From: Candidatus Limnocylindrales bacterium
Lineage (GTDB): Bacteria > Chloroflexota > Limnocylindria > Limnocylindrales > CSP1-4
Assembly (NCBI GenBank): GCA_035308445.1
Contig: DATGGQ010000029.1
Coordinates: forward strand, 33,244 to 97,243
DNA length: 64,000 nt
Reading direction: 5' to 3'
The translations under genes and the position numbers were made by a program. Below are positions 43,768 to 62,543 of this stretch, in pieces. Numbering within the stretch: position 1 is the stretch's first letter; each line of letters begins with the position of its first letter. A model generated the notes under the pieces. The model was not told the DNA's origin. It saw only the letters and a list, made by a program, of their open reading frames with translations, and did no database searches.

Positions 43768-44372
43768 CCGTGGCCACGCCGATCACGGCGGACATGGTCC
43801 GCGAGCTCCGCGAGCAGAGCGGCGCGGGGATGATGGACTGCAAGCGCGCCCTCACCGAGGCCGACGGCGACGTCGAGAAGGCCACGCTGATCCTGCGCGA
43901 GCGGGGGATGGCGGCGGCCAGCAAGAAGGCCGGCCGGGAGGCTCGCGAGGGCCTCATCGGCAGCTACATCCACACGGGCGGTCGCGTCGGCGTGCTCATC
44001 GAGGTCAATTGCGAGACCGACTTCGTGGCTCGGACCGACGGGTTCCAGAAGCTCGTCCGCGATCTCGCGATCCAGGTCGCCGGCCTCTCGCCGCTGTACG
44101 TCGACGTCGAGTCCGTCCCGGCGGCGGACCTCGAGACGAAGCGCGCCGAGCTCGCTGCCGACCCGGCGACCGCGGCGAAGCCGGCCGAGATCCGCGAGAA
44201 GATCGTCGACGGGCAGCTGAAGAAGTGGTTCAAGGAGGTCGTGCTCTACGAGCAGGTCTTCCGCGACGAGGAGCGGACAGTCCGCGAGCTGATCACCGAG
44301 CAGATCGCGACGATCGGCGAGAACATCCGCGTCCGCCGGTTCAGCCGGTTCGCCCTCGGGGAGGAGCTGTGA
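43764..44372 (+). CDS. tsf: Elongation factor Ts (short form)
   Basis: [19 protein letters not shown] (UBA-like N-terminus), [17 protein letters not shown]. Confidence 0.9.
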
Positions 44373-45163
44373 GCGACGCCCCCACCGCGACGACGGTGGT
44401 TCGTTCGGACGCGTCCGGATCCGGCACCGCCGAGCGGCCGCGCTATGACCGGATCCTGCTGAAGCTGTCGGGCGAGGCCCTCCTCGGTGAGCGGTCGTAT
44501 GGCGTCGACCCGAAGTTCTGCGCCTTCATCGCCCGCCAGGTGGCGGATGTCCAGCGCCGTGGCGTCCAGATCGGGATCGTAGTCGGCGGCGGCAACATCT
44601 TCCGAGGGCTCGCCGCATCGGCGACGGGCATGGACCGCGCGACCGGCGACTACATCGGCATGCTCGCGACGGTGATGAACGGGCTGGCCCTCCAGGACGC
44701 GGTCGAGCGAGCGGGGATCCCGACCCGGGTCATGAGCGCCATCGCCATGAACGAGATCGCCGAGCCGTACATCCGGCGGCGGGCGGTCCGGCACCTCGAG
44801 AAGGGCCGGGTCGTCATCTTCGTCGCCGGGACCGGCAACCCGTACTTCACGACCGACACCGCGGCCGCGCTGCGCGCGGTCGAGATCGGGGCAAAGGTCC
44901 TCATGAAGGCCACGAAGGTCGACGGCGTCTACGATGCCGACCCGATGACCGTGCCCGGCGCCCGGCGCTTCGAGCGGCTCGAGTACTCGGACCTGCTCCG
45001 CGACCAGCTGAAGGTCCTCGACGGCGCTGCCGTGTCGCTGTGCATGGAGAACGACCTCCCGATCGTCGTCTTCGACCTGAACCAGCCCGACAACATCGCC
45101 CGGGTGGCCGACGGCGAGCCCGTCGGCACGCTGATCGCCGGCCCCGGCACCGGCGGCCGCTGA
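44369..45163 (+). CDS. pyrH: Uridylate kinase
   Basis: [43 protein letters not shown] at 44369 with GGGAGGAG. The track ORF 43553 start is read-through. Confidence 0.9.
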
Positions 45164-45717
45164 TGGCCGAGCCCATCGACTCGACCGATCACAAGATGGC
45201 GCGGGCCGTCGAGGTGATGGAGCGCGACTTCGGCGCGATTCGGACTGGGCGGGCCTCGACCGGGCTCGTCGAGCGGATCACGATCGACTACTACGGGACC
45301 CAGACGCCCCTCAACCAGCTAGCCGGAATCAGTGTCCCGGAGCCGCACCAGATCGTCATCCAGCCGTGGGATCGCAGCGCGCTCAGCGCCATTGAGCGGG
45401 CGATCATCAAGAGCGACCTGGGCCTGACGCCGAACGTCGACGGGAACGTCGTCCGGCTCAACATCCCGACCCTGACCGAGGAACGTCGGCACGATCTGGT
45501 GCGGGTCGTGCACAAGCGGATGGAGGAGGCCCGGGTCGAGATCCGGAACCTCCGCCGCGAGGCCCACGACCAGCTGAAGCGCCAGGAGCGCGACGGCGAC
45601 CTCAGCGCGGACGAAGGGCGTCGGCTCATGGACGTGCTCCAGAAGACGACCGACCGCCACATCGAGGCGGTGGACCGCGTCGGTGCGGCAAAGGAACAGG
45701 AGGTCCTCGAGGTCTAG
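45163..45717 (+). CDS. frr: Ribosome recycling factor
   Basis: FGAIRTGRAS...VIQPWD...NIPTLTEERR; TGATG overlap with pyrH. Confidence 0.9.
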   Translation: MAEPIDSTDHKMARAVEVMERDFGAIRTGRASTGLVERITIDYYGTQTPLNQLAGISVPEPHQIVIQPWDRSALSAIERAIIKSDLGLTPNVDGNVVRLNIPTLTEERRHDLVRVVHKRMEEARVEIRNLRREAHDQLKRQERDGDLSADEGRRLMDVLQKTTDRHIEAVDRVGAAKEQEVLEV

Positions 45718-46502
45718 TGGCTCGAGCGCCGCTCGTCCGGCCAACCGACGCGCCACCCCGGGCCCACGAGCCCGACCCCGCCGTCGACCGCCGCGACGCG
45801 GCCGAGGCCCTCGGCCGCGCGGAGCTCCCGCGCCACGTCGCGATCATCATGGACGGCAACCGCCGCTGGGCCCGCGCCCGCGGCGTGCCCGAGCTCGACG
45901 GCCACGCCGCCGGGGTCGAGGCGATCCGCGGCCTGCTCCGGCACGCAGTCCGCCGCGGCATCCAGGTCCTGACGCTGTACGCCTTCAGCCGCGAGAACTG
46001 GGCCCGCACCGACGAGGAGGTCGTCGGGCTGTTCCGGCTGCTCGAGGCGGCCATCCGCTCGGAGACCGCGGAGCTGCAGACCCAGGGCGTCAACGTTCGG
46101 CTCCTCGGCCGGCTCGACGAGCTCCCACCGGAGACGCGCCGCTCGATCCAGTCCGCCCTCGACGCCACCGCCGCGGGCGATAGGCTGATCCTCAACGTCG
46201 CATTCAACTACGCCGGCCGGACCGAGCTCGTCGACGCGATCCGGCGGATCGTCCGGGCGGGCATCCCCGCCGACCGGATCGACGAATCGACGGTCGCGGC
46301 GGCGCTCTACACGGGAGACCTGCCGGACCCGGACCTCGTGATCCGGACCGGCGGCGAGCAGCGCCTCTCGAACTTCCTGATCTGGCAGTCGGCCTACGCC
46401 GAGCTGCTCACGACCGAGACGCTCTGGCCCGACTTCGGCCCGGACAGCCTGGACGACGCGCTCGCCGAGTACGCGACGCGGACCCGCCGCTTCGGTCGCT
46501 GA
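45717..46502 (+). CDS. uppS: Undecaprenyl (isoprenyl) diphosphate synthase
   Basis: HVAIIMDGNRRWA, conserved context AFSRENWAR, LSNFLIWQSAYAEL. Confidence 0.9.
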   Translation: MARAPLVRPTDAPPRAHEPDPAVDRRDAAEALGRAELPRHVAIIMDGNRRWARARGVPELDGHAAGVEAIRGLLRHAVRRGIQVLTLYAFSRENWARTDEEVVGLFRLLEAAIRSETAELQTQGVNVRLLGRLDELPPETRRSIQSALDATAAGDRLILNVAFNYAGRTELVDAIRRIVRAGIPADRIDESTVAAALYTGDLPDPDLVIRTGGEQRLSNFLIWQSAYAELLTTETLWPDFGPDSLDDALAEYATRTRRFGR

Positions 46503-46520
46503 TCGCGACCGCCGCCCGAC

Positions 46521-47351
46521 ATGCTGCGTGATCGCGCCCGGAGCGCGGCGATCCTCATCCCGCCGCTCCTCGTCGCGCTCTGGTTCGGCGAGCCGTGGAT
46601 CGCCCTCGTGGTCATCGTCGTCATCCTGCTCGCGGCCGTGGAGGCGTTCCGCCTCCTGTCAGCGGCTGGCCACGCGTCCTTCCCGACGCTCGGCGCGGTG
46701 CTCGCGATGGTCGTCGGGCTCGGGGACTCCGTCCGAGCCCTGTCGGGCGGCAGCGGCCTGCTGCTCCTCGGGGCCGGCGTCGTGCTCGTCGGGGTGGCCG
46801 CCGTCACGCGACCCGATCCGCGTGAAGGACTGGCGGCCTTCATGTCGACGATATCTGCCGCCCTGTACGTCGGCCTGCTGGGCTACGTCGACCGTCTGGC
46901 GAACGCGGGACCGTCGATCGACGCCACCGCCCCCCTGGGCTGGCTGGGCGCCGGCCGGGCCTGGGTCCTCATCCTGCTGCTCGCGGTCTGGACGTATGAC
47001 ACCGCCGCGTACTTCGTCGGACAGCGGTTCGGCCGGCGCCACTTCATCCCGCACATCTCGCCCGGCAAGACGGTCGAGGGCACGGTCGGCGGGCTGGTGG
47101 CCGCTGTCGTGGTCTGCGCGATCCTCGTGGCCGCGATCGGGCACTCGCTCGTCGCCGGCGCGCTGCTCGGTCTCGTCATCGGCTGCGCCGCCCAGGCCGG
47201 CGACCTCGTCGAGTCGATGCTCAAGCGCGCCGCGGGCGCGAAGGAGTCGGGAAGGCTGATCCCGGGCCACGGCGGCATGCTCGATCGGGTCGATTCGTTC
47301 CTGTTCGCGGCGCCGATCGCCTTCCTGTATGTCATCGCCGCGTTCCACTGA
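46521..47351 (+). CDS. cdsA: Phosphatidate cytidylyltransferase
   Basis: Polytopic; C-terminal signature SMLKRAAGAKESGRLIPGHGGMLDRVDS. Confidence 0.85.
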   Translation: MLRDRARSAAILIPPLLVALWFGEPWIALVVIVVILLAAVEAFRLLSAAGHASFPTLGAVLAMVVGLGDSVRALSGGSGLLLLGAGVVLVGVAAVTRPDPREGLAAFMSTISAALYVGLLGYVDRLANAGPSIDATAPLGWLGAGRAWVLILLLAVWTYDTAAYFVGQRFGRRHFIPHISPGKTVEGTVGGLVAAVVVCAILVAAIGHSLVAGALLGLVIGCAAQAGDLVESMLKRAAGAKESGRLIPGHGGMLDRVDSFLFAAPIAFLYVIAAFH

Positions 47352-48591
47352 CGGCCCGCCCGTCGGCGTCGCCGTTCTCGGCTCCACCGGCTCGATCGGC
47401 CGCCAGGCGATCGACGTCCTGGCCGGCAACGCTCGGTTCCGCGTCGTCGCGCTGGCGGCCGGCACGAACGCCGACCAGCTCGTCGAGCAGGCCCACCGCC
47501 TCCGGCCGGCGGCCGTCGCCGTGGCGGCACCGCGCTCCGGGCTCGCGCTGGAGGAGCGCCTCCCGCTCGGTACCGACGTCGAGCGCGGCGAGGACGCCCT
47601 GGTCGCGCTGGCCACGCGGCCGGACGTCGAGATCGTCCTGGTCGCCACCGGCGGGGTCGTGAGCCTGCGGCCCGTGCTGGCCGCCCTCGAGGCGGGCAAG
47701 GTCGTCGCGACGGCCAACAAGGAGACGCTGGTCGCGGGCGGGCATCTCGTGATGCCCCTGGCGCGTCGACGCGCGGCGGAGCGCGCGTCGATCGACCCCC
47801 GGGATCCGCTGGCCTCGCCGCTCGGCTGGCTGCGGCCGATCGACTCGGAGCACTCCGCAATCTGGCAGTGCCTGGTCGGCGAGGACCTCGCCCGCGTCGA
47901 CCGGCTGATCCTCACGGCATCCGGCGGGCCGTTCCTCGATCTCCCAGCCGAGGCCTTTGCCTCGATCACCCCGGCCGAGGCCCTCCGCCATCCGACGTGG
48001 ACGATGGGCCGCAAGATCACGATCGACAGCGCGACCCTCGCGAACAAGGGCCTGGAGGTCATCGAGGCCCACTGGCTGTACGATGCCCCGTACGAGGCGA
48101 TCGACGTCGTGATCCATCCGCAATCGATCGTCCATTCCGCCGTCCGCTTCTCCGACGGCTCCCTGAAGGCCCAGCTGGGCTCACCGGACATGCGCCTGCC
48201 GATCCAGTACGCCCTGACCCACCCCGATCGCGGACCCGCCGTGTCGCCGGCACCCGACCTCGCCGACGTCGGCCGGCTGGACTTCCGTGCCCCGGACGAG
48301 GCGCGATTCCCGGCGCTGCGGATCGCCCGCGAGGCGGGTCGGATCGGGCCATGGGCAACGACCGCGCTCATCGCCGCTGATGAGATCGCGGTGGAGCGGT
48401 TCCTCGCCGGGAGCCTCGACTTCCCGGGGATCCCGCAACTCCTCGAGGACGCGGTCGGACGATTTGGTCGAACACGCCGCACGGATCCGACTGTCGCCGA
48501 GCTGGTGAGCCTCGACGCCGAGGTCCGGGCACGCTACGCCGAGCCGGACCCGGCGCACGGACGGGGCCGGCGAAGGACTCGGCCCCATTGA
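47329..48591 (+). CDS. dxr: 1-deoxy-D-xylulose 5-phosphate reductoisomerase
   Basis: [34 protein letters not shown]. The ATG at 47329 overlaps the cdsA 3' end by 23 nt, so the start is uncertain. Confidence 0.85.
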
Positions 48592-49694
48592 TGGACTACG
48601 GCAGCGCGCTCGTCGCCCTCATCCTCTTCATCGTGGTCGTCGGCGGCCTCGTCCTCGTCCACGAGGTAGGCCACTACCTCATCGCGAGGGCGTTCGGCAT
48701 CCGGGTCCTCGAGTTCGGCGTCGGCTTCCCGCCACGGGCAAGGATCCTGCGGGCCCGGGGCGAGACGCTCTGGACGCTCAACTGGCTGCCGATCGGCGGC
48801 TTCGTCCGGCTCGAGGGCGAGGACGGCGACGGGGCGGGCGATCCGCGGTCGTTCGCGGCCCAGCGGCTGCCGAGGCAAGTCGCGGTGCTCGTCGCCGGCG
48901 TCCTGATGAACGTCGTGCTGGCGTTCGTGCTGTTCGTCGGGATCGCCTGGCTCGCAACGCCGGTGGTCGGTGTCGCGATCCCGTCGGTCCAGCCGAATTC
49001 GCCGGCCTCGGGAGCCGGGCTCGTGGCCGGCGACGCCATCGTCGGGCTGAACGGCCGGACGTACGACCTGTACAGCGACTCGGACATCCTCTCGACGCTC
49101 CACGCCAGCGCCGGCCAGACCATCACGCTGACGATCCGGCATGCGGACGGCACGACCGCCGACGTCACGGTCACGCTCCGCCCAGCGAGCCAGGTCGACG
49201 AGACCCATGGCGCGCTCGGGATCGCCGCCACGCCGACCCACCCGTTCGAGGCAGTCTTTCTCAACCAGTACGACAGCCGGCCGCTCGGCGACGCGCTGGC
49301 GATCGGCGCCGCGGAGCTGCCACGCTGGGCCGGCCTGGTCGTATCGGGACTTGGCGACCTCGTCCACAGCATCGTCACGAACCCCTCGGCGCCGCCGCCG
49401 GCATCCGGCCCGATCGGCATCGCCGTCACGCTCGGCCAGGTCTTCGGCGAGACGGGGGTGATCGGCGTCCTGCTGCTCGCGGCCGTGCTCTCGATCAACC
49501 TTGCCGTCGTGAACATCCTGCCGTTCCCGCCGCTCGACGGCGGCCGGATCCTCGTCCTCGTCCTGAAGCGACTGGCCGGCCGCCGGATCAGCCTCCGGGC
49601 GGAACGGCTCACCTACGCGATCGGGTTCGTGATCCTCATCGGCTTCGTGATCTGGATCTCCGGCTTCGACATCAGCGGGCACCCGAGCCCGTGA
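48588..49694 (+). CDS. rseP: RIP (site-2) zinc metalloprotease RseP
   Basis: HEVGHY zinc motif, PDZ domain, [17 protein letters not shown]. Confidence 0.85.
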
Positions 49695-50986
49695 GCGCCG
49701 GCGTCCCCGATCCGAACCGCCTGAAGCCGCGCCGTCGGGCCACGCCCTCGGTCGACGTCGGCGGCGTGCTCGTGGGGAGCGCCCATCCCGTCGTCGTCCA
49801 GTCGATGACGAACACGGACACGGCCGACGCCGACGCCACCGCGATCCAGGTCGCGCGGCTCGCCCACGCCGGCAGCCAGCTCGTCCGCGTCACCGTGAAC
49901 AACGACGCCGCGGCGAAGGCGGTGCCGGAGATCCGCCGCAAGCTCGACGACCTCGGCGTCGGCGTGCCGGTCATCGGCGACTTCCACTACAACGGCCACC
50001 AGCTCCTGACCGAGCATCCGGCGATGGCCCGCGCCCTCGCGAAGTACCGGATCAACCCCGGCAACGTCGGCGCGAAGCGACACGACGAGCACTTCCAGAC
50101 GATCGTCCGGGTCGCGATCGACAACGACAAGCCCGTCCGGATCGGGGTCAACTGGGGCTCGCTCGACCAGGGGCTCCTGACCGATCTCATGAACGAGAAC
50201 GCAAAGCTGGCCGAGCCACGCGACGCGCGGGAGGTGCTGATCGAGGCGATCGTCCAGTCGGCGACCCGATCGGCGGAGCTGGCCGAGGCGACCGGCCTCC
50301 GGCACGATCGCATCATCCTCTCGGCCAAGGTGTCGGGGGTCCGCGATCTCGTCGACGTGTACCGGATCCTGGCTCGCCAGACCGACCTGCCGCTGCACCT
50401 CGGGCTGACCGAGGCGGGCATGGGCATGAAGGGCATCGTGGCGTCGACCGCCGGGCTGGCGATCCTGCTCGAGGAGGGGATCGGGGACACGATCCGCGTC
50501 TCGCTGACGCCGGCCCCGGGCGGCGACCGCGAGGAGGAGGTCCGCGTCGCCCAGCAGGTCCTGCAGTCGATGGGCCTCCGGGCGTTCCTGCCCCAGGTGT
50601 CGGCCTGCCCAGGCTGTGGCCGCACGACGTCGACGTTCTTCCAGGAGATGGCCGAGCAGGTCCAGGGCTATCTCCGCGACCGGATGCCGGAGTGGCGAGA
50701 GACCCATCCCGGCGTCGAGGAGCTCACCGTGGCCGTCATGGGCTGCGTCGTGAACGGGCCGGGCGAATCGAAGCATGCGGACATCGGGATCTCGCTGCCG
50801 GGCACGTTCGAGGAGCCGGTCGCCCCCGTGTTCATCGACGGCCGGCTGGACCGGACGCTCCGGGGCGACGGCCTCGTGGCCGAGTTCACCGACATCCTCG
50901 AGGACTACGTCGATCGGCGCTTCCCGGCGACGGGTGGCGGCGGGGCGGGGGTCAGCGACCGAGGAGGAGCAGCAGCCCGCAGATGA
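49691..50986 (+). CDS. ispG: 4-hydroxy-3-methylbut-2-enyl diphosphate synthase (flavodoxin type)
   Basis: [16 protein letters not shown] cluster ligands, [11 protein letters not shown]. Gly-rich C-terminal tail overlaps the convergent gene. Confidence 0.9.
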
Positions 50987-51609
50987 TCGCGAGGCCCGCG
51001 GCGGCGAACGCCGGGGTCATGATCCGGAAGGTCAGCCGGCGGAGGGTCACCCCGCCGTGGCGAGTCCGATACTCGGCGTCCAGCCGGAGGCTGTCGGCCA
51101 TGGACTGGACACGACGCGGGGCGCCGTGGACCTGGCGGAGCCGGGCAATCTCGGCGCGGTGCGCGGCCACCGTCCCGGCGACCGTCGTGTCGACGTACCG
51201 GGCGACGTAGTCGGGCCGGTCGATGACCTCGCCGCGCGGGTAGTTCGTCTGCAGCCAGGCCCAGTCGGCGAACGCCGTGTAGCAGGCCATCAGGGCGGGG
51301 AGGAGCCGCATCGGCACGACCGCGACGTAGGTCTCGCCGGTCTCGTCGGCCCAGGTCCACTCGAACCGCCGCCCTCCGTCCGGCAGGACGATCGTCCGCT
51401 CGCCGATCCGGTGGAATCCGAGCGCCTCCAGCTGGTCGAGGACGTGGGCGACGGGGGTGGCGGCGGGATCTCCAGTGGGCCGGCGTCGGCCAGCCGGCGC
51501 GTCTTCGATCCGGCATAGATCGCCCACGCCCGCATGGCCGGCGGCACGAACCGGAGCAGCAGCAGGATGGCCAGGGCGAGCCCTGCGAGCTCGAGCGTCC
51601 GTTCGGGCA
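50952..51609 (-). pseudogene. Probable frameshifted gene for a ~219-aa bitopic membrane protein (N-terminal and C-terminal TM helices), in the slot where rimP normally sits
   Basis: Frame B (from ATG 51609) gives MPERTLELAGLALAILLLLRFVPPAMRAWAIYAG... and then degenerates into Pro/Ser junk. Frame A (ending 50952) is protein-like from ...VAHVLDQLEALGFHRIGER... to a C-terminal TM ([22 protein letters not shown]). The two frames switch near a CCGCCGCCACCCCCG run at about 51470-51500. On its strand a TACGAT box lies 8 nt before ATG 51609. Confidence 0.35.
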
Positions 51610-51635
51610 TCGGGCGGCATCGTACGCGGTCGGGT

Positions 51636-51641
51636 GTATAC
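51636..51641 (+). promoter_or_regulatory. Putative -10 box TATACT of the nusA-infB operon leader
   Basis: GGGTGTATACTCCCGGGG; motif family member. Confidence 0.35.
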
Positions 51642-51668
51642 TCCCGGGGAGCTCGAATGGCCGCCTCG

Positions 51669-51698
51669 ATACGTGGGTGACCCCCACGTATTTTTTTC
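51669..51698 (+). terminator. Intrinsic terminator (9-bp stem ATACGTGGG/CCCACGTAT plus T7 run) inside the nusA 5' leader; likely NusA-responsive attenuator
   Basis: Hairpin followed by TTTTTTT read directly. This is the only long T-run in a strongly GC-rich window; it lies 50 nt upstream of the nusA ATG and about 30 nt downstream of the putative -10. Confidence 0.6.
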
Positions 51699-51749
51699 GG
51701 CGGCGATGGATCGGACACACGACGCTGACGACTGGAGGGCGGCACGACC

Positions 51750-52967
51750 ATGAGTCGGGATTTCGTCGGCGCCCTCCTCCAGCTGAATGCCGAGAAGCAG
51801 GTTCCCCGTGAGCAGCTGATCCGGACGGTGGAGGAGGCCATCGCGATGGCCTATCGCCGGATCGCGAACGAAGAGGACATCCACGTCCAGATCAACGGCG
51901 ACACCGGCGGCATCCGTGTGTACCGCGCCCGCTGGGCGGTCGACGAGGTCGAGGACCCGCTGACCCAGTTCAGCCTCGATGAGGCCCGGGCCATCAAACC
52001 CGACGTCCAGCGCGGCGAGCTCGTCGAGACGGAGCAGCTCGACGGCGAGGCGTTCGGCCGGATCGGCGCCCAGACCGCGAAGCAGGTCGTGCTGCAGCGC
52101 CTCCGCGAGGCGGAGCGCGACGTCGTCTTCGACCAGTTCGCGAGCCGCGAGGGCGAGCTCGTGAACGGCACGGTCAACCGCGTCGAGCCGCGGGCGATCA
52201 TCCTCGACATGGGCAAGGGCGTCGAGGCGATCCTCGCCACGACCGAGCAGAGCCCCCTCGAGCACTACCGCATCGGCCAGAACGTCAAGGCCTACGTCCT
52301 CGAGGTCCGCCGCACGCCGCGCGGGCCGGCGCTCTTCGTGAGCCGGACGCACAAGGGCTTCCTGAAGCGCCTGTTCGAGCTCGAGGTTCCCGAGATCCAC
52401 AACGGCACCGTCGAAATCCGGGCGATCGCCCGCGAGGCGGGCAGCCGCTCGAAGGTCGCGGTCGGCTCGCGTCAGGAGGGGCTCGACCCGGTCGGCGCGA
52501 CGGTCGGCCAGCGCGGCGCGCGAGTCCAGGCCGTCGTCGCCGAGCTCGGCGGGGAGAAGATCGACGTCATCCCGTGGAGCGAGGACCCGTCCCAGTTTGT
52601 CGCCAACGCGCTCTCGCCGGCGCAGGTCCTGTCCGTGGACATCGACCAGGAGCACCGGATCGCGAACGTGACGGTGCCCGAGCGGATGCTGTCGCTCGCG
52701 ATCGGCCGAGAGGGCCAGAACGCGCGGCTCGCCGCCCGCCTCACGGGCTGGCGCATCGACATCCGCAGCGATGTGTCGGTTGCCGAGGCGAAGGCCGCCG
52801 CCGCTGCGGCCGCAGCGGCCCCGAGCGTCGAGCCCGCGATCGAGCCGCCGTCGAACAGCAAGGCCCCGGCCGAGGCGGCGGAGGCTTCTGACAGTGCGGC
52901 CGCGCCGGCGCCCAGGAAGCGGGCCAGCCGTGCCAAGGCCAAGGCATCGGAAGAGGTGTCGTCGTAG
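51750..52967 (+). CDS. nusA: Transcription termination/antitermination factor NusA
   Basis: N-terminal domain, S1, two KH domains (AIGREGQNARLAARLTGWRIDI); Ala/Lys-rich C-terminal tail; SD GGAGGG. Confidence 0.9.
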   Translation: MSRDFVGALLQLNAEKQVPREQLIRTVEEAIAMAYRRIANEEDIHVQINGDTGGIRVYRARWAVDEVEDPLTQFSLDEARAIKPDVQRGELVETEQLDGEAFGRIGAQTAKQVVLQRLREAERDVVFDQFASREGELVNGTVNRVEPRAIILDMGKGVEAILATTEQSPLEHYRIGQNVKAYVLEVRRTPRGPALFVSRTHKGFLKRLFELEVPEIHNGTVEIRAIAREAGSRSKVAVGSRQEGLDPVGATVGQRGARVQAVVAELGGEKIDVIPWSEDPSQFVANALSPAQVLSVDIDQEHRIANVTVPERMLSLAIGREGQNARLAARLTGWRIDIRSDVSVAEAKAAAAAAAAAPSVEPAIEPPSNSKAPAEAAEASDSAAAPAPRKRASRAKAKASEEVSS

Positions 52968-52981
52968 GCGCCGGAGCCGCG

Positions 52982-53266
52982 GTGGCGGCCCGTCCCCGTC
53001 GCCCCACGACCCGATCGTGCGTGGCCTGCCGAACGTCGCGCGACAAGCGCGAGCTCCTGCGGGTCGTCCGAACGCCGGCCGGCGAGGTGCGTCTCGATCC
53101 CACGGGGCGGCTGAACGGCCGCGGCGCATACGTGGATTCCAACCCGGCCTGCATCGACGGCGCCGTCGATCGCGGCCTGCTGGCGCGCGCCCTCGAGACC
53201 GACCTGCCGGCCGGCCTCCGAGCGGACCTGCTCGCCGCCACCGGAGGCAGCCATGGCCAGGAGTAG
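52982..53266 (+). CDS. ylxR: YlxR-family (DUF448) RNA-binding protein
   Basis: RSCVACRTSRDKRELLRVV...GRGAYV signature; conserved position between nusA and infB. Confidence 0.8.
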   Translation: MAARPRRPTTRSCVACRTSRDKRELLRVVRTPAGEVRLDPTGRLNGRGAYVDSNPACIDGAVDRGLLARALETDLPAGLRADLLAATGGSHGQE

Positions 53267-55154
53267 GAGCGGCACCCGCGGCCGACGCGGACCCCGCAAG
53301 CCCCAGCGCCGCGACGGCGCCTTCCAGCAGGCGGCCGTGCAGGTCGCCGATCCGCGCGAGCGCGGCGCGGTCGAGCTGCCGCCGACCATCACGGTCAAGG
53401 AGCTGGCCGAGCTGCTGAGCGTCAACCCGGCGGACGTGATCCGGGAGCTGATCAAGAGCGGCATCTTCGCAACGATCAACCAGCTCATCGATCGAGACAC
53501 CGCCTCGCTCGTGGCCGGCGAGCTCGGCTATGAGGTCGCCGAGCCCCAGGCCGTCTCGTCGACGAACGGCGAGGATCGATCCGAGGCGCCATCGGAGGCG
53601 GTCAAGGAGGCGCTCTTCACCGAGGAGGACGGCGCCGACCTCGTGACGCGTGCCCCGATCGTGACCGTCATGGGCCACGTCGATCACGGCAAAACGAGCC
53701 TCCTCGACGCGATCCGCAAGACCGAGGTCGCGGCGGGGGAGCGGGGTGGCATCACCCAGCACATCGGCGCGAGCGAGGTCCATCGCGGCGACCGCCGGGT
53801 CGTGTTCCTCGACACCCCCGGCCACGAGGCCTTCACGGCGATGCGGGCCCGCGGTGCGAAGGTCACCGACGTGGCCGTCGTCGTCGTCGCCGCCGACGAC
53901 GGGGTAATGCCCCAGACCCTCGAAGCGATCAGCCACGCGAAGGCCGCCCAGGTCCCGATCATCGTGGCCCTCAACAAGATCGACAAGCCGGATGCCAACC
54001 CGGACCGGGTGAAGACCGACCTCACCGAGGCCGGGGTCGTCATCGAGGAGTACGGCGGTGACACGCCACTCGTGCCCGTCTCGGCACGGACGGGCGTCGG
54101 GCTCGACGACCTCGTCGACATGATCCTGCTCGTCTCGGACCTGCAGGAGCTGAAGGCCAACCCGAAGCGGGCGGCGATCGGCACGATCGTCGAGGCTCGG
54201 ATGGACAAGGGCCGTGGTCCCGTGGCGACGGCGCTGGTCCAGACCGGGACGCTCCGCGTCGGCGACGTCATCGTCGTGGGCGAGACGTTCGGCCGCGTCC
54301 GGGCGCTCGAGAACGAGCACGGCAAGCGCGTCTCGAAGGCCGGCCCCGCGACGCCGGTCGTCGTGCTCGGCCTGTCCGAGGTCCCGGAGGCTGGCGACAT
54401 CCTGCGCGTCGTCGCCGACGAGAAGGCCGCCCGGACGATGGTCGAGGCCCGCCGGGCCGAGCTTGCCTCGAAGGGCGGCGAGGGGAGCGGCCGGGCGACG
54501 CTCGAGGACCTGTACCGCCAGATCCAGGCGGGCCAGGCGAAGGAGCTTCGGATCATCCTCAAGGCCGACGTCTCGGGCTCGCTCGGCGCGATCCGCCATG
54601 CGCTCGAGCAGCTCCCGACCGACGAGGTGAAGCTGAACATCCTCCACGAGGGTGCCGGCGAGATCAGCGACAACGACATCCTGCTGGCCTCGGCGTCGAA
54701 CGCCATCGTCGTCGGCTTCAACACGTCCATCAGCGACACGGCCCGCCGGGCCGCCGCTCAGGAGAAGGTCGACGTTCGCCTGTACGACATCATCTACCAG
54801 CTCACCGACGACATCACCAAGGCCCTCGGCGGCATGCTCGAGCCCGAGCAGGTCGAGGTGGTCGAGGGTCGGGCCGAGGTGCGCCAGCTCATCAAGGTCG
54901 GCAAGAGCACCGTCATCGCGGGCTCGTACGTGACGGACGGCCGCATCGTCCGCGGCGGGGCACGCATCTGGCGCGGCGGCAAGGTCATCGCGACGGACCG
55001 GATCGAGTCGCTGCGCCGCTTCCGCGACGACGTCCGCGAGGTCCAGACCGGCTTCGAGTGCGGCATCGGCCTGGCCGGCTTCAGCGACCTCGAAGAAGGC
55101 GACATCATCGAGTGCTTCACGTCGCAGACCGTCAGCCGGTCCCTGACGGCCTGA
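53253..55154 (+). CDS. infB: Translation initiation factor IF-2 (short N-terminus)
   Basis: GHVDHGKTSLLD, DTPGHEAF, NKIDK G-domain motifs; C-terminal beta-barrel domains. Confidence 0.95.
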   Translation: MARSRSGTRGRRGPRKPQRRDGAFQQAAVQVADPRERGAVELPPTITVKELAELLSVNPADVIRELIKSGIFATINQLIDRDTASLVAGELGYEVAEPQAVSSTNGEDRSEAPSEAVKEALFTEEDGADLVTRAPIVTVMGHVDHGKTSLLDAIRKTEVAAGERGGITQHIGASEVHRGDRRVVFLDTPGHEAFTAMRARGAKVTDVAVVVVAADDGVMPQTLEAISHAKAAQVPIIVALNKIDKPDANPDRVKTDLTEAGVVIEEYGGDTPLVPVSARTGVGLDDLVDMILLVSDLQELKANPKRAAIGTIVEARMDKGRGPVATALVQTGTLRVGDVIVVGETFGRVRALENEHGKRVSKAGPATPVVVLGLSEVPEAGDILRVVADEKAARTMVEARRAELASKGGEGSGRATLEDLYRQIQAGQAKELRIILKADVSGSLGAIRHALEQLPTDEVKLNILHEGAGEISDNDILLASASNAIVVGFNTSISDTARRAAAQEKVDVRLYDIIYQLTDDITKALGGMLEPEQVEVVEGRAEVRQLIKVGKSTVIAGSYVTDGRIVRGGARIWRGGKVIATDRIESLRRFRDDVREVQTGFECGIGLAGFSDLEEGDIIECFTSQTVSRSLTA

Positions 55155-55193
55155 GGTGACGCGCCGCGACCTGAGCGCTCCCGGGGTGTCCCG

Positions 55194-55613
55194 ATGACCC
55201 AGCGCACGGACCGGATCGACGAGCAGCTCAGGCAGGAGATCGGGGCGATCCTGGCCCGCGAGATCAGCGACCCGCGGATCGGCTTCGCGACGGTGACCGA
55301 CGTCGAGACCGTACCGGACCTTAGCCACGCGAAGGTCTGGATCAGCGTCATCGGCCAGCCCGCCGAGCGCCGGGAGACGGCTCGCGCCCTGACCCATGCG
55401 CTGCCGTACATCCGGCGGCAGCTCGGCTCGCGCCTGCACCTCCGCCGGATCCCGGAGCTGCACCTTGAGCTGGACGAGACCGCGGAACGGGGGACACGGG
55501 TCCTCAAGCTGATCGAGGAGCTCGAGGCCGGCCGGACACCGGACGAGCAGGTGACGGCGGGCGAGACCCTGCCGACGCCGGTGAAGCGGATCCAGCACGA
55601 GGGCGACGCGTGA
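55194..55613 (+). CDS. rbfA: Ribosome-binding factor A
   Basis: RIDEQLRQEIGAILAREISDPRIGFATVTDVE... Confidence 0.9.
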   Translation: MTQRTDRIDEQLRQEIGAILAREISDPRIGFATVTDVETVPDLSHAKVWISVIGQPAERRETARALTHALPYIRRQLGSRLHLRRIPELHLELDETAERGTRVLKLIEELEAGRTPDEQVTAGETLPTPVKRIQHEGDA

Positions 55614-56626
55614 CGATCGACCTCGGGCCGTGGCTCGGCGAGGTCCCGGAGCGGGCCGCCGAGCGGATCGCGGCCGGCCGGCGCGTCCTCATCGCCAGCC
55701 ACGAGAACCCCGACGCGGACACCCTCGGGGCGGCGCTCGGGGTCGCGGCAATCGTCGAGCAGCACGGCGGACGCACGCAGCTGCTGTGCGCCGACACCAT
55801 CCCGCCGCTGTACGACTTCCTGCGCGGGGTCGAGCGGTTCCGGACCGACCCGGATCCGGAATTCGGGCCCGACCTGCTCGTCGTCTGCGACTGCGGCGCC
55901 CTGGACCGCCTCGGCAGCCTCGGCGAACGCCAGGCGACGCTGTTCGCGAGCCTGCCGCGGGTCATCGTCGACCACCACGCCTCGAACACGGAGGGCGGGG
56001 CGGACGACTGGGTCGATCCGCAGGCCGCGGCGACGTGCGAGATGGTGGCGCTGCTCGCGGCTAAGCTGGCCGTGCCGCTCGACTCGGGCGGCGGCGCCCT
56101 CGCCACGGCGCTCATGGCCGGCGTGGTGATGGACACCGCGACTTTCGCCCACCCAAATGCGACGCCGCGGACGCTGGCGGTGTCGGCCGCGCTCGTCGAC
56201 GCGGGCGCACCGCTGGCGGACATCTCCCGCCGGCTCTACCGCTCGAAGCCGGACGCCCAGCTGAAGCTCCTCGGCCGGGCGCTGCATCGGCTCGAGACGG
56301 CGGCCGACGGGCGGATCGTCTGGTCGACGCTGCGGACCGCCGATCACGCCGAGACGGGGGCGCTGCCGTCCCACTCGGAGGGCATCATCGACCTCCTCTC
56401 GCAGTCGGAGACCGCCGAGGTCGCCATCCTCTTCAAGGAGGTCGACGCGAGCTCGACGCGGGTGTCGGTCCGGACGCGAGACGGCGGCCTCGACGCCACC
56501 CGCCTGACCGGTGCCTTCGGCGGGGGCGGTCACGCTCGGGCCGCCGGCGCGACGGTGCGGGCCGCGCTGCCCGACGCCGAGCGCCAGGTCCTCGCCGAGG
56601 CCGAGCGCCTCCTCGCCGCGGGCTGA
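55610..56626 (+). CDS. nrnA: DHH-family bifunctional oligoribonuclease / pAp phosphatase NrnA
   Basis: HENPDADTLGAA (DHH motif I), DHH at VIVDHHASN, C-terminal DHHA1 GGGH. Confidence 0.85.
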   Translation: MTIDLGPWLGEVPERAAERIAAGRRVLIASHENPDADTLGAALGVAAIVEQHGGRTQLLCADTIPPLYDFLRGVERFRTDPDPEFGPDLLVVCDCGALDRLGSLGERQATLFASLPRVIVDHHASNTEGGADDWVDPQAAATCEMVALLAAKLAVPLDSGGGALATALMAGVVMDTATFAHPNATPRTLAVSAALVDAGAPLADISRRLYRSKPDAQLKLLGRALHRLETAADGRIVWSTLRTADHAETGALPSHSEGIIDLLSQSETAEVAILFKEVDASSTRVSVRTRDGGLDATRLTGAFGGGGHARAAGATVRAALPDAERQVLAEAERLLAAG

Positions 56627-56629
56627 CCC

Positions 56630-57562
56630 GTGCCCCAGCCTCGGACGAGCCGGATGAGCGGCGTCCTCGTTGTCGCGAAGCCCGCCGGTCCCACCTCGCA
56701 CGACGTCGTGGCGCTCGTCCGGCGACTGGCGGCGTCGAAGCGGATCGGGCACGGCGGCACGCTCGATCCGTTCGCCTCGGGCGTCCTGCCGCTGTTCCTC
56801 GGCGGGGCGACGCGGCTCGTGGAATACCACCTCGGCGACCCGAAGACCTACCGCGCGACGATCTGCTTCGGCGCCTCGTCGACGACCGACGACCTCGACG
56901 GCGAGCTGACGCCGGTCACTGGACCCGTGCTCGGTCGGGGTCAACTGGAGAACGCCCTGTCGGGCTTCCTGGGAGTGCAGCTCCAGCGGCCGCCGGCGTA
57001 TTCGGCCGTCCAGGTCGGCGGGCGGCGGGCCTATGCGATGGCCCGAGCGGGGGAGACGCCGACCCTGAGCCCTCGCGAGGTCACGATCCACGCGCTCCGG
57101 CTCGTCGACTGGGACGACGCCGACCAGAGCCGGCCCGTGGCGATCGTCGAGGTCGAATGCTCCGCGGGCACCTACGTCCGCGCTCTCGCCCGGGACCTCG
57201 GGGCGCGCCTCGGGTCGGGTGCGTACCTGTGCGGCCTCGTGCGCACGGCCTCGGGGCCGTTCAGCCTCGATGACGCGCGCCCGCTCGACGCGATCCGTGA
57301 GGCGGCGGCATCGGGCGGCGCCGATGCCATCCAGGCCATGCTGCTGCCGTCGGACACCGGGCTCGACGCGATCCCCGCGCTCCGGCTGACGGACGCCGAG
57401 GTGGCCGACGCGACGATGGGCCGCTACTTCCGACCGGAGGCCGGGGTCGGCGGGGTTCCGGCCGCCGGCCCGGTGCGGCTCCAGGATCCTCGCGGCCGGA
57501 TCGTGGGCATGGGCCGGCTGGACGGCCGCCGGATCGTGCCCGACAAGATGCTCGTGTCGTGA
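56630..57562 (+). CDS. truB: tRNA pseudouridine(55) synthase
   Basis: [17 protein letters not shown]...GHGGTLDP... (catalytic Asp), PUA-like C-terminus. Confidence 0.9.
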
Positions 57563-58344
57563 AGGTCGTCCACGGCGTCGAGGCGCTCGAGCCCGCCGAC
57601 GGGCGCCTCTTCGTCGTCGTCGGGGTGTTCGACGGCCTCCATGTCGGGCACGCCTATCTCCTCGACGAGCTTCGGAAGGCCGCGATTCAGGCCGGGGCCC
57701 GACCGGCTGTCATCACCTTCGACCACCATCCCGACGAGGTCATCAGGGGGGCCGCGCCGCCACTCCTCTGCGATCCCGAGGAGCGCCTCGAGCGCCTGCA
57801 GATGGCGGGGGTCGAGGTCACCGTCGTCCAGACCTTCGACGTCGCCCTGCGCATGACGCCGTTCGAGGCATTCGTGCGGCGGATCGCCGACCGGGTCGAT
57901 CTCGCCGGCGTCCTGATGACGCCGGAGTCGGCGTTCGGCCACGACCGCGGCGGCACGCCGGAGACCGTGGCGGCCCTGGGTCGAACGCTCGGCTACGACG
58001 TGGTCGTCGTGCCCCAGTTCGAGCTCGACGGTCGGCCGGTTCGGAGCTCGGACATCCGGGCGGCGATCGCGACCGGGGACCTTCGGGAAGCCGAGCACCT
58101 GCTGGGCCGCCCGATGTCGGTCGTCGGCGAGGTCTCGCGGGCCCTTCGGGATGCCACGGTGCTGGGCTTCGGGCTGCCGGTCGTCCTGCCACCCGCCGGC
58201 CGCTACGAAGCTGTCGTGACGTCGCCCGGCGGCGCGATTCGAGAGCGCACCATCGAGGTCGACGGCACGATCCTCCAGATCACGCCGGCCATTCCGGCTC
58301 GGGTCGGGGACCGCCTCGTCGTGTCGCCGCGGGGGCCCGCCTGA
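57559..58344 (+). CDS. ribF: FAD synthetase RibF-like (FMN adenylyltransferase domain intact; C-terminal riboflavin-kinase domain short and degenerate)
   Basis: [17 protein letters not shown] nucleotidyltransferase motif. Only 261 aa versus the usual ~310. The kinase region lacks the GxxRGR..GFPTAN signature (reads [15 protein letters not shown]). Confidence 0.75.
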
Positions 58345-58377
58345 TCGTCGTCGCGTGCGCGATCACGGTTCGACTGC

Positions 58378-58383
58378 TATCCT
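58378..58383 (+). promoter_or_regulatory. Putative -10 box TATCCT upstream of rpsO
   Basis: GCTATCCTCCGCCGG; the same TATCCTCC core as at rpsF and the LCP gene. Confidence 0.3.
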
Positions 58384-58442
58384 CCGCCGGTCTAAGTTTC
58401 AAGATTCAGGAACCAACGAACACGTTCGTGTCGGAGGACCGA

Positions 58443-58712
58443 GTGCCGCTCGCGCCTGCAGGCAAGCAGGAGATCATCACCGAGTACGCCATCATCGATG
58501 GCGACACGGGCTCGCCGGAAGTCCAGATCGCCCTCCTCACGGAGCGGATCCGAGGGCTGACCGAGCATCTCCGCAGCTTTCCCAAGGACAACCATTCGCG
58601 TCGCGGCCTCCTCAAGCTCGTCGGTCAGCGCCGGCGCCTGCTCGCGTATCTCGTGAAGAAGGACGCCACGCGCTACCGGGCCGTCATCGGACGGCTCGGA
58701 CTTCGCCGCTAG
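58443..58712 (+). CDS. rpsO: 30S ribosomal protein S15
   Basis: KQEIITEYA...[17 protein letters not shown]....KD.HSRRGLL..V..RRRLL.YL. GTG at 58443 with GGAGG 5 nt upstream is preferred over the track start 58428. Confidence 0.85.
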
Positions 58713-58715
58713 CCC

Positions 58716-58808
58716 GCACCAGCGAGCCCGGGTGCGCCCGGGCGGTGCCGCAGGCCAGCTCGTAGATCGGCCCGCACACAGGTCGGCGCCTCCTCCGCGA
58801 CCAGGAGG
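58716..58808 (+). promoter_or_regulatory. rpsO-pnp intercistronic leader: stem-loop GCACC..CCCGGG-tgcg-CCCGGG..GGTGC (58716-58748), then anti-SD CCTCCTCC (58789-58796) able to pair with the pnp SD AGGAGG (58803-58808)
   Basis: Inverted repeats read directly. The architecture matches the RNase III-processed, PNPase-autoregulated pnp leader known in other bacteria. Confidence 0.45.
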
Positions 58809-58819
58809 AAACCAACTTC

Positions 58820-61411
58820 GTGTCCACCATCGTGGAGACCCAGCTTCGTGGCCGCACGGTCACGATCGAGACCGGCAAGCTCGCGATGCTCGCCGGCGGC
58901 TCCGTCACCGTCCGTCTCGGTGACACCGTCGTGCTCGGCACGGCGAATCGCTCCGACCCGAGGCCCGGGCTCGACTTCTTCCCGCTCACGGTCGACTTCG
59001 AGGAGCGGATGTACGCCGCGGGCAAGATCCCGGGCGGCTTCATCAAGCGCGAGGGCCGTAGCAGCGAGGGTGCCATCCTCGCCGCGCGCCTGACCGACCG
59101 GCCGATCCGTCCGCTCTTCCCCGACGGCTACAAGGACGATGTCCAGGTCGTGATCACGGTCCTCTCGACCGATCAGCAGAACGATCCCGACGTCCTCGGC
59201 ACGGTGGCCGCCTCGGCCGCGCTGACCCTCAGCGAGATCCCGTTCCTCGGCCCGGTCGGCGCGGTTCGCGTCGGCCGCGTGGACGGCGAGCTCATCGCCA
59301 ACCCGACATTCGACGAGCTCAAGGAGTCGGACCTCGACCTGATCGTCTCGGGCACCCGGGACGCGATCATGATGGTCGAGGCGGGCGCGAAGCTCCTGCC
59401 CGAGGACGTCATGGCCGAGGCCATCCTCTTCGGCCACCGGGCCCTCCAGCCCCTGATCGACATCCAGGAGGACCTGCAGAAGCAGGTCGGCAAGGCCAAG
59501 AAGACCGGCTACCTCGAGCCGGGGACCGACTCGGTGCTGGCGTTCGTCGACGCGTTCGAGTCCGGCAAGGACCTCGTCGTCGTCGACGTCGAGACCACGG
59601 GTGTCGACACCTCGCTGGCCGATCTCGTCGAGGTTGCCGGCGTCCGGATCCGGAAGGGCAAGATCGCCGACCGCTGGTCGAGCCTCGTCAAGCCCGCCCG
59701 CCCGATCGTCGGCCACCAGCTCCACGGGCTGACCGATGCCGACGTCGCGAAGGCGCCGTCCGCGGCCGTGGCCGCCGGGCAGCTGCTCGAATGGGCCGGT
59801 GACGCGACGCTCGTCGGCCACAACGTCGGGTTCGACCTCGGGTTCATCGCCGAGGCCATCGGCGGCCGCGAGTTCGCCGCGGGCACCTACCTCGACACGC
59901 TCGTGCTGGCTCGCGACGGGTATCCGACGGGCCCCGACGCCTACAAGCTGACCGACCTCTCGCGATTCTTCGGGATCGAGCTCCAGGCCAACCATCGGGC
60001 CGCGCCCGACGCCGAGGCCACGGCCGAGCTCGTGCTGAAGATCGGCGCGGACCTGCCGGGCCGGATCAAGGCCCTGAAGGCCGGCATCGCCGACTCGATC
60101 CGCCAGCAGAAGGCGGACCCGGCGAAGGCCAAGGCGACCTTCGAGGCGGCGCGCCGGACGGCGCGCGTGAGCAAGAGCCTCTCCGGGCTCGTCCACAAGA
60201 AGGTCGTCCGCGCGCTCGTCCTCGGTGAGGGCGTCAGGATGGACGGCCGCGCGCTCGACGAGATCCGGCCGATCTCCGTCGAGGTCGGGCTGCTGCCGCG
60301 AGCCCACGGCTCCGGCCTCTTCACCCGCGGCCAGACCCAGGCGCTGACGATCGCCACGCTCGGGCCGTCATCGGACGTCCAGCGGATCGACACGATCAGC
60401 CCGGAGACCGAGAAGCGCTACATCCATCACTACAATATGCCGCCCTACAGCACCGGCGAGAACAAGCCGATGCGAGGTCCCGGGCGGCGCGAGATCGGTC
60501 ACGGCAACCTGGCCGAGCGGGCCCTCGTCCCGGTGCTTCCGAGCGCCGAGGAGTTCCCGTACGTGATCCGGCTCGTGTCGGAGTGCGTGACGTCGAACGG
60601 CTCGACCTCGATGGCCTCGACCTGCGGCTCGACGCTCGCCCTGATGGACGCCGGCGTGCCGATCAAGGCACCGGTCGCCGGCGCGGCGATGGGGCTCGTC
60701 ATGGAGGCCGATGGCACGTTCGCGGTCCTGACCGACATCCTCGGCAAGGAGGATGCGTTCGGGGACATGGACTTCAAGGTCACCGGGACCCGCGACGGGA
60801 TCACCGCGCTCCAGATGGACATCAAGGTCCGGGGCATCAGCGAGGCCGTCATCCGGCAGGGGCTCTCGAAGGCCCTGACCGCCCGTCTGGCGATCCTCGA
60901 CAAGATGGTGGCGGTCCTGCCCGAGGCGCGCGAGGAGATGTCCTCCTTCGCGCCGCGGATCATCACGATCAAGATCAACCCCGAGAAGATCCGGGACATC
61001 ATCGGCAAGGGTGGCTCGATGATCCGGAAGATCCAGGAGGAGACGGGCACCGAGATCAACGTCGAGGACGACGGCACGGTCGAGATCGCCGCGGTGAGCG
61101 GCGAGAACTCGCGCAAGGCGATCAACTGGATCGAGAGCCTGACGCGCGAGGTCGAGATCGGCGCCCTGTACCTGGGCAAGGTCACCCGGATCATGTCCTT
61201 CGGGGCGTTCGTCGAGATCCTGCCGGGCAAGGAAGGCCTCGTCCGGATCGGCGAGCTCGCCGACTACCACGTTCCGACCGTCGAGGACGTCGTGTCTGTC
61301 GGCGACGAGGTGATGGTCGTGGTCATCGAGGTCGACCGGCAGGGCCGGATCAACCTCAGCCGGAAGGCCGCGATGCAGCGCCACCTGGCGAAGGAGCCGG
61401 TCGCCGGCTGA
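58820..61411 (+). CDS. pnp: Polyribonucleotide nucleotidyltransferase (PNPase) with an inserted DEDDh (DnaQ/Orn/RNase T-like) 3'-5' exonuclease domain (about aa 250-420) inside the alpha-helical linker domain
   Basis: PH1 (FFPLTVDFEERMYAAGKIPGGF), PH2 (LPRAHGSGLFTRGQTQAL...), KH and S1 are all present. An extra ~170 aa carries Exo I VVVDVETTG, Exo II LVGHNVGFDLGFI and Exo III HRAAPDAEATAEL, and aligns along its length with DnaQ epsilon. Confidence 0.9.
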   Translation: MSTIVETQLRGRTVTIETGKLAMLAGGSVTVRLGDTVVLGTANRSDPRPGLDFFPLTVDFEERMYAAGKIPGGFIKREGRSSEGAILAARLTDRPIRPLFPDGYKDDVQVVITVLSTDQQNDPDVLGTVAASAALTLSEIPFLGPVGAVRVGRVDGELIANPTFDELKESDLDLIVSGTRDAIMMVEAGAKLLPEDVMAEAILFGHRALQPLIDIQEDLQKQVGKAKKTGYLEPGTDSVLAFVDAFESGKDLVVVDVETTGVDTSLADLVEVAGVRIRKGKIADRWSSLVKPARPIVGHQLHGLTDADVAKAPSAAVAAGQLLEWAGDATLVGHNVGFDLGFIAEAIGGREFAAGTYLDTLVLARDGYPTGPDAYKLTDLSRFFGIELQANHRAAPDAEATAELVLKIGADLPGRIKALKAGIADSIRQQKADPAKAKATFEAARRTARVSKSLSGLVHKKVVRALVLGEGVRMDGRALDEIRPISVEVGLLPRAHGSGLFTRGQTQALTIATLGPSSDVQRIDTISPETEKRYIHHYNMPPYSTGENKPMRGPGRREIGHGNLAERALVPVLPSAEEFPYVIRLVSECVTSNGSTSMASTCGSTLALMDAGVPIKAPVAGAAMGLVMEADGTFAVLTDILGKEDAFGDMDFKVTGTRDGITALQMDIKVRGISEAVIRQGLSKALTARLAILDKMVAVLPEAREEMSSFAPRIITIKINPEKIRDIIGKGGSMIRKIQEETGTEINVEDDGTVEIAAVSGENSRKAINWIESLTREVEIGALYLGKVTRIMSFGAFVEILPGKEGLVRIGELADYHVPTVEDVVSVGDEVMVVVIEVDRQGRINLSRKAAMQRHLAKEPVAG

Positions 61412-61433
61412 TCCGTTCGGACCGCAGACAGGC

Positions 61434-61462
61434 GAAGACCCCGGCCGACGGCCGGGGTCTTC
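61434..61462 (+). terminator. Terminator-like hairpin GAAGACCCCGGCC-gac-GGCCGGGGTCTTC 22 nt after the pnp stop
   Basis: Perfect 13-bp inverted repeat followed by TTCCGATTCG (weak U-tract). Confidence 0.6.
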
Positions 61463-62418: not shown

Positions 62419-62490
62419 GGCGGCAGCCTAACGGGGGCGGGGGCGATTTTCCCTCCCCCCGTCGGGGACGGTCCGGGAGTGGGCCGCTGG

Positions 62491-62496
62491 TATACT
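62491..62496 (+). promoter_or_regulatory. Putative -10 box TATACT upstream of asd
   Basis: CTGGTATACTCGCCGCC in the divergent intergenic region. Confidence 0.3.
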
Positions 62497-62543
62497 CGCC
62501 GCCGTGCCCGGATGACCTCGAAGCCCTGCGGAGCCATGCCCGG

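Follow-up and report, generated by a model that had tools for sequence, protein, structure and literature searches.

The nusA operon described here lies in a 64-kb stretch of DNA (the window, 72.5% G+C) from Candidatus Limnocylindrales (Chloroflexota, Limnocylindria). The NusA protein encoded in the window matches an NCBI entry from a Candidatus Limnocylindrales MAG with 100% identity. The operon has the order nusA-ylxR-infB-rbfA, and its leader lies directly 5' of nusA. The leader features and the operon genes are listed below by window position.

51634-51642, plus strand: promoter -10 region GTG-TATACT, with the hexamer TATACT at 51637-51642
51649-51658, plus strand: predicted transcript start (about 51649-51650) and A-rich single-stranded 5' tail GAGCUCGAAU
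51659-51665, plus strand: leader box GGCCGC(C), which forms the 5' side of outer helix P1; no variation in columns G-GCCGC across 93 non-redundant leaders
51668-51692, plus strand: terminator hairpin P2 with 10 pairs (GATACGTGGG/CCCACGTATT), -14 kcal/mol, covering the core 51671-51689
51689-51697, plus strand: U-rich tract UAUUUUUUU, with seven T (T7) at 51691-51697
51699-51704, plus strand: 3' strand of P1, GGCGGC, which pairs with the box in the minimum-energy fold
51734-51738, plus strand: Shine-Dalgarno GGAGG of nusA, read from the sequence and kept 5' of the start codon in relatives
51750-52967, plus strand: nusA, the first operon gene, ATG at 51750; open reading frame with Pfam domains NusA_N, S1 and NusA-like KH (KH_5)
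52982-53266, plus strand: ylxR, open reading frame with the Pfam YlxR domain
53253-55154, plus strand: infB, open reading frame with the Pfam IF-2 domain
55194-55613, plus strand: rbfA, open reading frame named by operon order alone

The last 14 nt of ylxR (ending at 53266) are also the first of infB (starting at 53253), an overlap suggestive of translational coupling inside the operon. A 1548-aa open frame on the minus strand (window 50952-55598) runs antisense to nusA, ylxR and infB. It is the usual stop-codon-poor artefact of DNA with 72% G+C and not a gene. The gene rimP is absent from the nusA operon of this lineage. The interval between the leader and nusA is too short for a rimP gene, and tblastn with E. 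coli RimP, a weak test, gave no match in the window or in 200 related loci.

The promoter was examined together with those of the relatives. The first-pass annotation had reported a TATACT box resembling a -10 element at 51636. The box is real, and only its position needed correction: 51636 is the preceding G and the hexamer occupies 51637-51642. A TATACT-like hexamer was found in 196 of 197 relatives, 14-17 nt 5' of the GGCCGC box, and the -10 region took its usual form, GTGTATACT, in 138 of the 197. The -35 motif TTGnnn was enriched in relatives only at a spacer of 17 bp. There, 38% matched at 4 or more of 6 positions, compared with 3% or less at offsets outside 17-18. The window's own -35 is poor (GCGGCA, 51614-51619). 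These results support the earlier claim of a promoter upstream of the hairpin, since a promoter-like element stands there at a fixed distance. Judged by the spacing from the -10 box, the transcript probably starts at about 51649-51650. The 5' tail has the consensus nnAAnnnAAC before the box and was unpaired in the minimum-energy folds. The sequence from the U tract to the start codon varies and spans 41-117 nt; no second nusA promoter was conserved in it.

Between ispG and the nusA leader, a stretch of about 660 bp (50952-51613) carries a divergent ORF on the minus strand. Pfam gave no match to this ORF, and none of the 200 related loci, in which ispG often adjoins the leader directly, contains a homologue. 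Its reading frame appears to shift near 51470, with an N-terminal hydrophobic segment in one frame and the remainder in another. The stretch may be a lineage-specific insertion, a pseudogene or a high-G+C ORF artefact. It is unique to the window among the loci compared, and it displaces the -35 region of the nusA promoter.

The P2 core consists of ACGTGGG (51671-51677), the loop TGACC (51678-51682) and CCCACGT (51683-51689). The hairpin lies 58 nt 5' of the nusA ATG and about 30 nt 3' of TATACT. Its folding energy corresponds to z = -4.7 against shuffled sequences. The z-score of the whole 141-nt intergenic region was -0.1, and therefore the local element alone is exceptional. It had been described as a 9-bp stem followed immediately by TTTTTTT. 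Both the hairpin and T7 are present, with the amendment that the first T closes the 9-bp stem, so that six T follow it. The U tract of the window is nearly perfect, with a single interruption (A at position 2). From its position, the attenuated RNA is predicted to end at about 51696-51699.

The T run was also said to be the only long one in a GC-rich window, which proved right: T7 is the only run of at least 7 T in 64 kb, with 0.05 expected at 72.5% G+C. Two T runs of at least 5 occur in the 64 kb, and besides T7 there is one A/T homopolymer of that length. When 60 kb of the window was scanned for terminators (1-40000 and 44001-64000), five sites combined a hairpin with a T run, a smaller number than shuffled DNA gave. 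The nusA leader hairpin was the only strong terminator-like site among them; the other four had 5-6 pairs and were no commoner than in shuffles. Most transcripts of the lineage apparently end by means other than canonical terminators, with the nusA leader as the exception. The 19-mer ACGTGGGTGACCCCCACGT occurs once in the window, where 0.04 matches would be expected with up to 3 mismatches allowed. No second leader copy was detected in the window, either by pattern search or by the covariance model with filters off.

Two samples of relatives were used to follow the element. The genome sample held one genome per species and gave 80 loci, almost all of them named Chloroflexota or Limnocylindria, with NusA 69-98% identical. 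The metagenome sample consisted of contigs with an exact match to the 19-mer ACGTGGGTGACCCCCACGT, of which there were at least 120. A search for homologues of the NusA protein returned only close relatives, so that the comparison covers this lineage. The core 10-mer GTGGGTGACC was present 5' of nusA in all 79 genome loci that include the leader, and the tract after it stays U-rich, so a lack of conservation in relatives, which would have counted against the element, was not seen. Among the matches listed, 119 of 120 metagenome contigs carried the 19-mer 41-117 nt 5' of the nusA start (MSRDFVGALL...), with NusA identity down to 53% and G+C down to 61%. The sole exception among them (L127) has the 19-mer in a coding-like stretch that lacks a U tract and a GGCCGC box, and looks like a chance match. 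We found no mention of the 10-mer in this sense in the literature searched.

A covariance model built from 93 non-redundant leaders matched all 79 loci with 45-77 bits. In the window it picked out a single site, which scored 72.8 bits, and the runner-up reached 14 bits. T runs were rare around nusA in the relatives as well: of the 51 runs of at least 6 T in 498 kb of genome loci (both strands), 49 were the leader tract. Altogether, the hairpin and its 9-nt U-rich tract were kept 5' of nusA in about 200 relatives, which bears out the earlier placement of a terminator in the 5' leader of the nusA operon.

Different parts of the leader are conserved to different degrees. Of the eight P2 pairs, four to five are constant throughout sets of 93 and 77 distinct leaders, and most of the other pairs deviate in only 1-6 sequences. 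Seven core pairs and the loop show little or no variation; where a change does occur, which is rare, it is mostly a wobble pair or a loop insertion. The linker between the GGCCGC box and the hairpin measures 2-10 nt. In 176 unique leaders, the 9 nt after the stem contain 7.5 U on average, and position 10 is U in 12%. Tract positions 1, 3, 5 and 6 are U in 95-100%, while positions 2 and 4 are variable. C occupies position 4 in 36% of relatives, and bases other than U are common at positions 2 and 7-9. Downstream of the 3' strand of P1, an unconserved spacer of 30-100 nt leads to GGAGG and the start codon. Covariation of the hairpin had been proposed as a check. The hairpin is strongly conserved, but its stem and loop are near-invariant rather than covarying, a point that the first-pass annotation had missed. 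The element is under strong purifying selection.

Two irregularities were observed among the relatives. In 13 loci (L083, L095, L114, L115, L135, L142, L143, L162, L165, L173, L179, L188 and L193) the spacer between the terminator and nusA is about 100-117 nt long and has G+C-rich internal complementarity; this subgroup may have an additional clade-specific leader structure. One metagenome contig (L187) carries the leader motif twice, together with two further chance copies of the 10-mer. Its two leader copies differ by small indels, and this looks like an artefact of assembly or long-read error and not a true duplication.

The neighbourhood of the leader bears on whether the terminator serves nusA or the genes before it. 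A constitutive insulator would block read-through from rseP-ispG and fix a low output from a strong nusA promoter without feedback. Such a role would suit the 132 relatives that have ispG upstream in the same orientation, in some cases only about 60 nt away from the hairpin (range 60-6535 nt), and also the almost perfect U tract of the window, which is like that of strong terminators. However, a conserved promoter lies between ispG and the hairpin, so nusA transcripts must cross the hairpin. The element also stays with nusA where ispG is distant or absent (in 16 loci ispG is absent within 1400 nt), and in the window the 660-bp insert separates the two. An insulator would need neither an invariant stem and loop nor the GUGGG...CCCAC signature of the leader family described below. 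We regard a purely constitutive insulator as quite improbable. Across about 200 relatives the element travels with nusA, whatever the upstream gene.

The GGCCGC box can pair with the segment after the U tract to form the outer helix P1. That 3' segment is variable among leaders (CGGCGGC, GAGCGGCC, CGGACCGGCC or UCGGGGUC). In 176 unique leaders, pairing of the box with the first 14 nt beyond the U tract gave a mean duplex energy of -13.8 kcal/mol, compared with -7.0 kcal/mol for the next 14 nt and -9.9 kcal/mol for shuffles. A duplex of -8 kcal/mol or better was available in 97% of leaders, versus 37.5% for the next 14 nt. In a fixed register, 59-62% of the alignment cells pair; this value is low because the register shifts between subfamilies. 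One P1 pair covaries (C:G, U:A and U:G). In the minimum-energy folds of three divergent read-through leaders P1 encloses P2, with the U tract in an internal loop. The closest relative (L001) is without P1. These results give P1 moderate support, mainly by energetics. The first-pass annotation had overlooked this outer helix.

The 3' strand of P1 is transcribed only past the termination point, and therefore P1 can form only in read-through RNA and is no antiterminator. No competing antiterminator was visible in the alignment or the folds: in the terminated RNA the hairpin is retained at minimum energy, with no competition from the weak 5' hairpin. P1 also bears on the idea that the leader encodes an independent trans-acting sRNA of about 50 nt whose place next to nusA is only a matter of synteny. 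A promoter and a terminator of its own would fit an sRNA, as would the high sequence conservation including the single-stranded 5' part. However, pairing of the segment after the tract back to the box makes sense only in read-through RNA, no second nusA promoter is conserved between the tract and the start codon, and the element belongs to a known family of cis-acting leaders. An independent sRNA therefore seems very improbable.

Several other uses of the leader were considered and rejected. Pairing of a CCUCC-like box with the nusA ribosome-binding site, as an anti-Shine-Dalgarno, reached -11.9 kcal/mol, but shuffles gave -11.3 kcal/mol, so the value reflects composition; moreover, CUCC is missing from several subfamilies. 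A leader peptide (AUG GCC GCC UCG AUA CGU GGG UGA in the window) was dismissed, as most relatives have AAC for the AUG and the frame differs where an AUG is present. For a pseudoknot between the loop UGACC and the GGCCG box, the 5-nt loop cannot span the helix; both partners are invariant, so covariation is uninformative. The 5' tail GAGCUCGAAUGG (in relatives AACUGAACGG) resembles only loosely the RNA AGAA/CUCAAUA bound by the KH domains of M. tuberculosis NusA (PMC1635273); this likeness was not rejected but retained as a lead.

A leader of this kind has been described in other phyla. Naville and Gautheret reported the 'rimP-leader' as the most ubiquitous attenuator: in the leader of rimP-nusA-infB they described a short, highly conserved terminator whose GGG...CCC stem is followed by a run of U (Naville & Gautheret 2010, Genome Biol 11:R97; PMC2965389). 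The rimP-leader is without an antiterminator. From this and the conserved stem they proposed a sequence-specific termination or antitermination protein, with NusA as the best candidate, and they also considered feedback by RimP, an operon product other than NusA (PMC2965389). Their supplementary list shows the core (A)GUGGG-loop-CCCRC(U) followed by a U tract in Cyanobacteria, Clostridia, Bacilli, Alphaproteobacteria and Deltaproteobacteria; a term search of the supplements returned Dehalococcoides as the only Chloroflexota (PMC2965389). We found that GTGGG..CCCRC matches 30 of 55 published leaders, and a relaxed form 40 of 55. GTGGG-TGACC-CCCAC in the window fits this signature. When TTT was added to it, the signature matched the window once on both strands, at the nusA leader.

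The element resembles the rimP-leader in several respects. It is positioned in the 5' leader of a nusA/infB operon, 3' of the promoter. Its 5' arm is G-rich and its 3' arm C-rich, with the GUGGG...CCCRC core and the U stretch directly after. It has neither an antiterminator nor a large aptamer-like conserved element, and its stem is kept by sequence and not by covariation. There are also differences. Here the operon does not include rimP, and nusA is the first gene after the leader. Where the published 'GGGc...gCCC' has an inner c:g pair, this hairpin has a U/C mismatch, a 19-nt stem and loop are near-invariant across a class, and an invariant GGCCGC box with an outer helix enclosing the terminator is added. 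On signature and position, we take the element to be the Limnocylindria member of the pan-bacterial rimP-leader family. The attenuator reading of the first-pass annotation gains from this comparison, because the hairpin bears the GUGGG...CCCAC and U-tract signature of the published rimP/nusA-operon leader attenuator.

The same comparison helps to judge a DNA-level explanation, in which ACGTGGG-N5-CCCACGT is an operator bound by a dimeric repressor 3' of the promoter. Both arms are invariant and do not covary, as in a protein-bound palindrome. Several observations speak against an operator. The asymmetric central TGACC is invariant as well, and only one flank carries a preserved U-rich tract, whose exact sequence varies. 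The P1 complementarity on either side of the hairpin belongs to the RNA level, and the motif occurs once per locus, only at nusA (among the matches listed). Across phyla, the hairpin and U signature recurs with other loops and stem extensions. A DNA operator is thus hardly credible as the function of the element.

The leader was also compared with better known nusA-operon leaders. A search of 50500-52500 against Rfam at a permissive threshold (E up to 10) returned nothing relevant. Rfam RF01770 'rimP' (Gammaproteobacteria; gathering score 47 bits) scores 102 bits on the E. coli leader and does not match the window. The E. coli metY-rimP-nusA-infB leader is alike in having GGG/CCC terminator hairpins and U tracts 5' of the operon. 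It differs in that a tRNA gene is followed by two hairpins in tandem, first CCCCG...CGGGG and next GGGC...GCCC, where the Limnocylindria leader has a single terminator hairpin. In E. coli, NusA represses its own operon (Plumbridge 1985 and Nakamura 1985, as cited in PMC2965389).

In B. subtilis, NusA-stimulated termination in its own leader provides autoregulation (Mondal 2016, as cited in PMC12288461), and an intrinsic terminator in the leader likewise governs transcription entering nusA. That autoregulation was shown experimentally, whereas ours is deduced from sequence, and the two leaders are compared here by description only. The B. subtilis operon begins with rimP (ylxS) and its leader is about 180 nt long (PMC2965389), versus about 100 nt here. 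NusA-dependent terminators of B. subtilis are described as having a weak hairpin or distal interruptions of the U tract (PMC8060035, citing Mondal 2016). Many relatives of the window do have interrupted tracts, but the window itself, with its tract UAUUUUUUU and its hairpin of -14 kcal/mol, is not obviously weak. With a fairly stable hairpin and a near-perfect tract, the window terminator looks strong and factor-independent, unlike the weak NusA-dependent type of B. subtilis.

Both NusA and IF2 are among the core factors of transcription and translation. In its normal function, NusA stimulates hairpin-dependent termination. Taken together, the evidence points, with a probability of roughly 0.78, to a transcription attenuator of the rimP-leader family in the leader of nusA-ylxR-infB-rbfA, with negative feedback by NusA as the proposed mode. 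The first-pass annotation had likewise proposed NusA autoregulation, and its reading is supported in all the parts on which sequence comparison can decide. We infer termination at this site, NusA as the effector and the role of P1. RNA polymerase would start about 7 nt after TATACT and transcribe the A-rich tail and the GGCCGC box, followed by the hairpin ACGUGGG-UGACC-CCCACGU and the 9-nt U-rich tract. Some polymerases would release an RNA of about 50 nt at about 51696-51699, and the remainder would continue into nusA. Since no antiterminator competes with the hairpin and the stem keeps its sequence instead of covarying, the share of polymerases that read through would most likely depend on a protein that acts on the hairpin and on the paused polymerase. 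The best candidate for this protein would be NusA: more NusA would give more termination and less nusA mRNA. In the read-through RNA, the segment after the U tract would pair with the GGCCGC box to form P1, giving a two-tier 5' hairpin of about -28 kcal/mol, and P1 may stabilise or mark the full-length mRNA.

The identity of the effector is where the attenuator reading meets its main rival. The attenuator may be real and be read by another RNA-binding operon product (candidates are YlxR/RnpM, RbfA and IF2) or by a dedicated factor; either would recognise the GGCCGC box together with the hairpin. All three conserved parts, the stem, the loop and the box, are kept across NusA divergence down to 53% identity (among the matches listed), which speaks for sequence-specific recognition. 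The near-total invariance of stem and loop exceeds the needs of NusA's known hairpin contacts and counts against NusA. The genes ylxR, infB and rbfA lie directly 3' of nusA. Naville and Gautheret, too, thought of feedback by RimP and not only by NusA (PMC2965389). However, NusA alone has experimental feedback evidence on such a leader in other bacteria, as far as the sources cited above report, and it works at hairpin-dependent terminators by its normal function. No data were found linking YlxR, RbfA or IF2 to this leader RNA. An effector other than NusA is thus unlikely.

A more speculative proposal concerns what the hairpin and the box do together. The 19-nt hairpin and the GGCCGC box might form a protein-binding platform, for NusA S1-KH or for another operon product, in a two-state leader. 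In the terminated state the box would be free and the factor bound; in the read-through state P1 would sequester the box, and the mRNA would be stable and translatable. We consider this a tentative idea, rather doubtful at present. If it were true, GUGGG...CCCAC would be the long-sought recognition element of the factor, and the leader, at about 50 nt, would be a clean and minimal model for learning how the most widespread attenuator in bacteria is read. In the literature searched, no factor reading the GUGGG...CCCAC hairpin has been established since 2010.

Returning to the attenuator as a NusA feedback element of the rimP-leader family, what appears new here is a lineage-specific member without rimP, with a near-invariant stem and loop, a GGCCGC box and a P1 clamp. 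It extends the attenuator to an uncultivated high-G+C class of Chloroflexota. The leader signal stands out there because canonical U-tract terminators are otherwise almost absent, both in the 64-kb window and in about 500 kb around nusA in its relatives. The element is retained even where the operon is without rimP, and it is in this sense independent of rimP. The approximately 200 leaders form a natural mutagenesis set, in which the 19-mer, the GGCCGC box and U at positions 1, 3, 5 and 6 are fixed, and the rest of the tract, the 3' strand of P1 and the spacer to the start codon are free to drift. This natural variation makes binding and termination experiments straightforward to design. The element is also a candidate for a new Rfam family or a seed extension, and a candidate marker for the starts of nusA operons in Limnocylindria MAGs.
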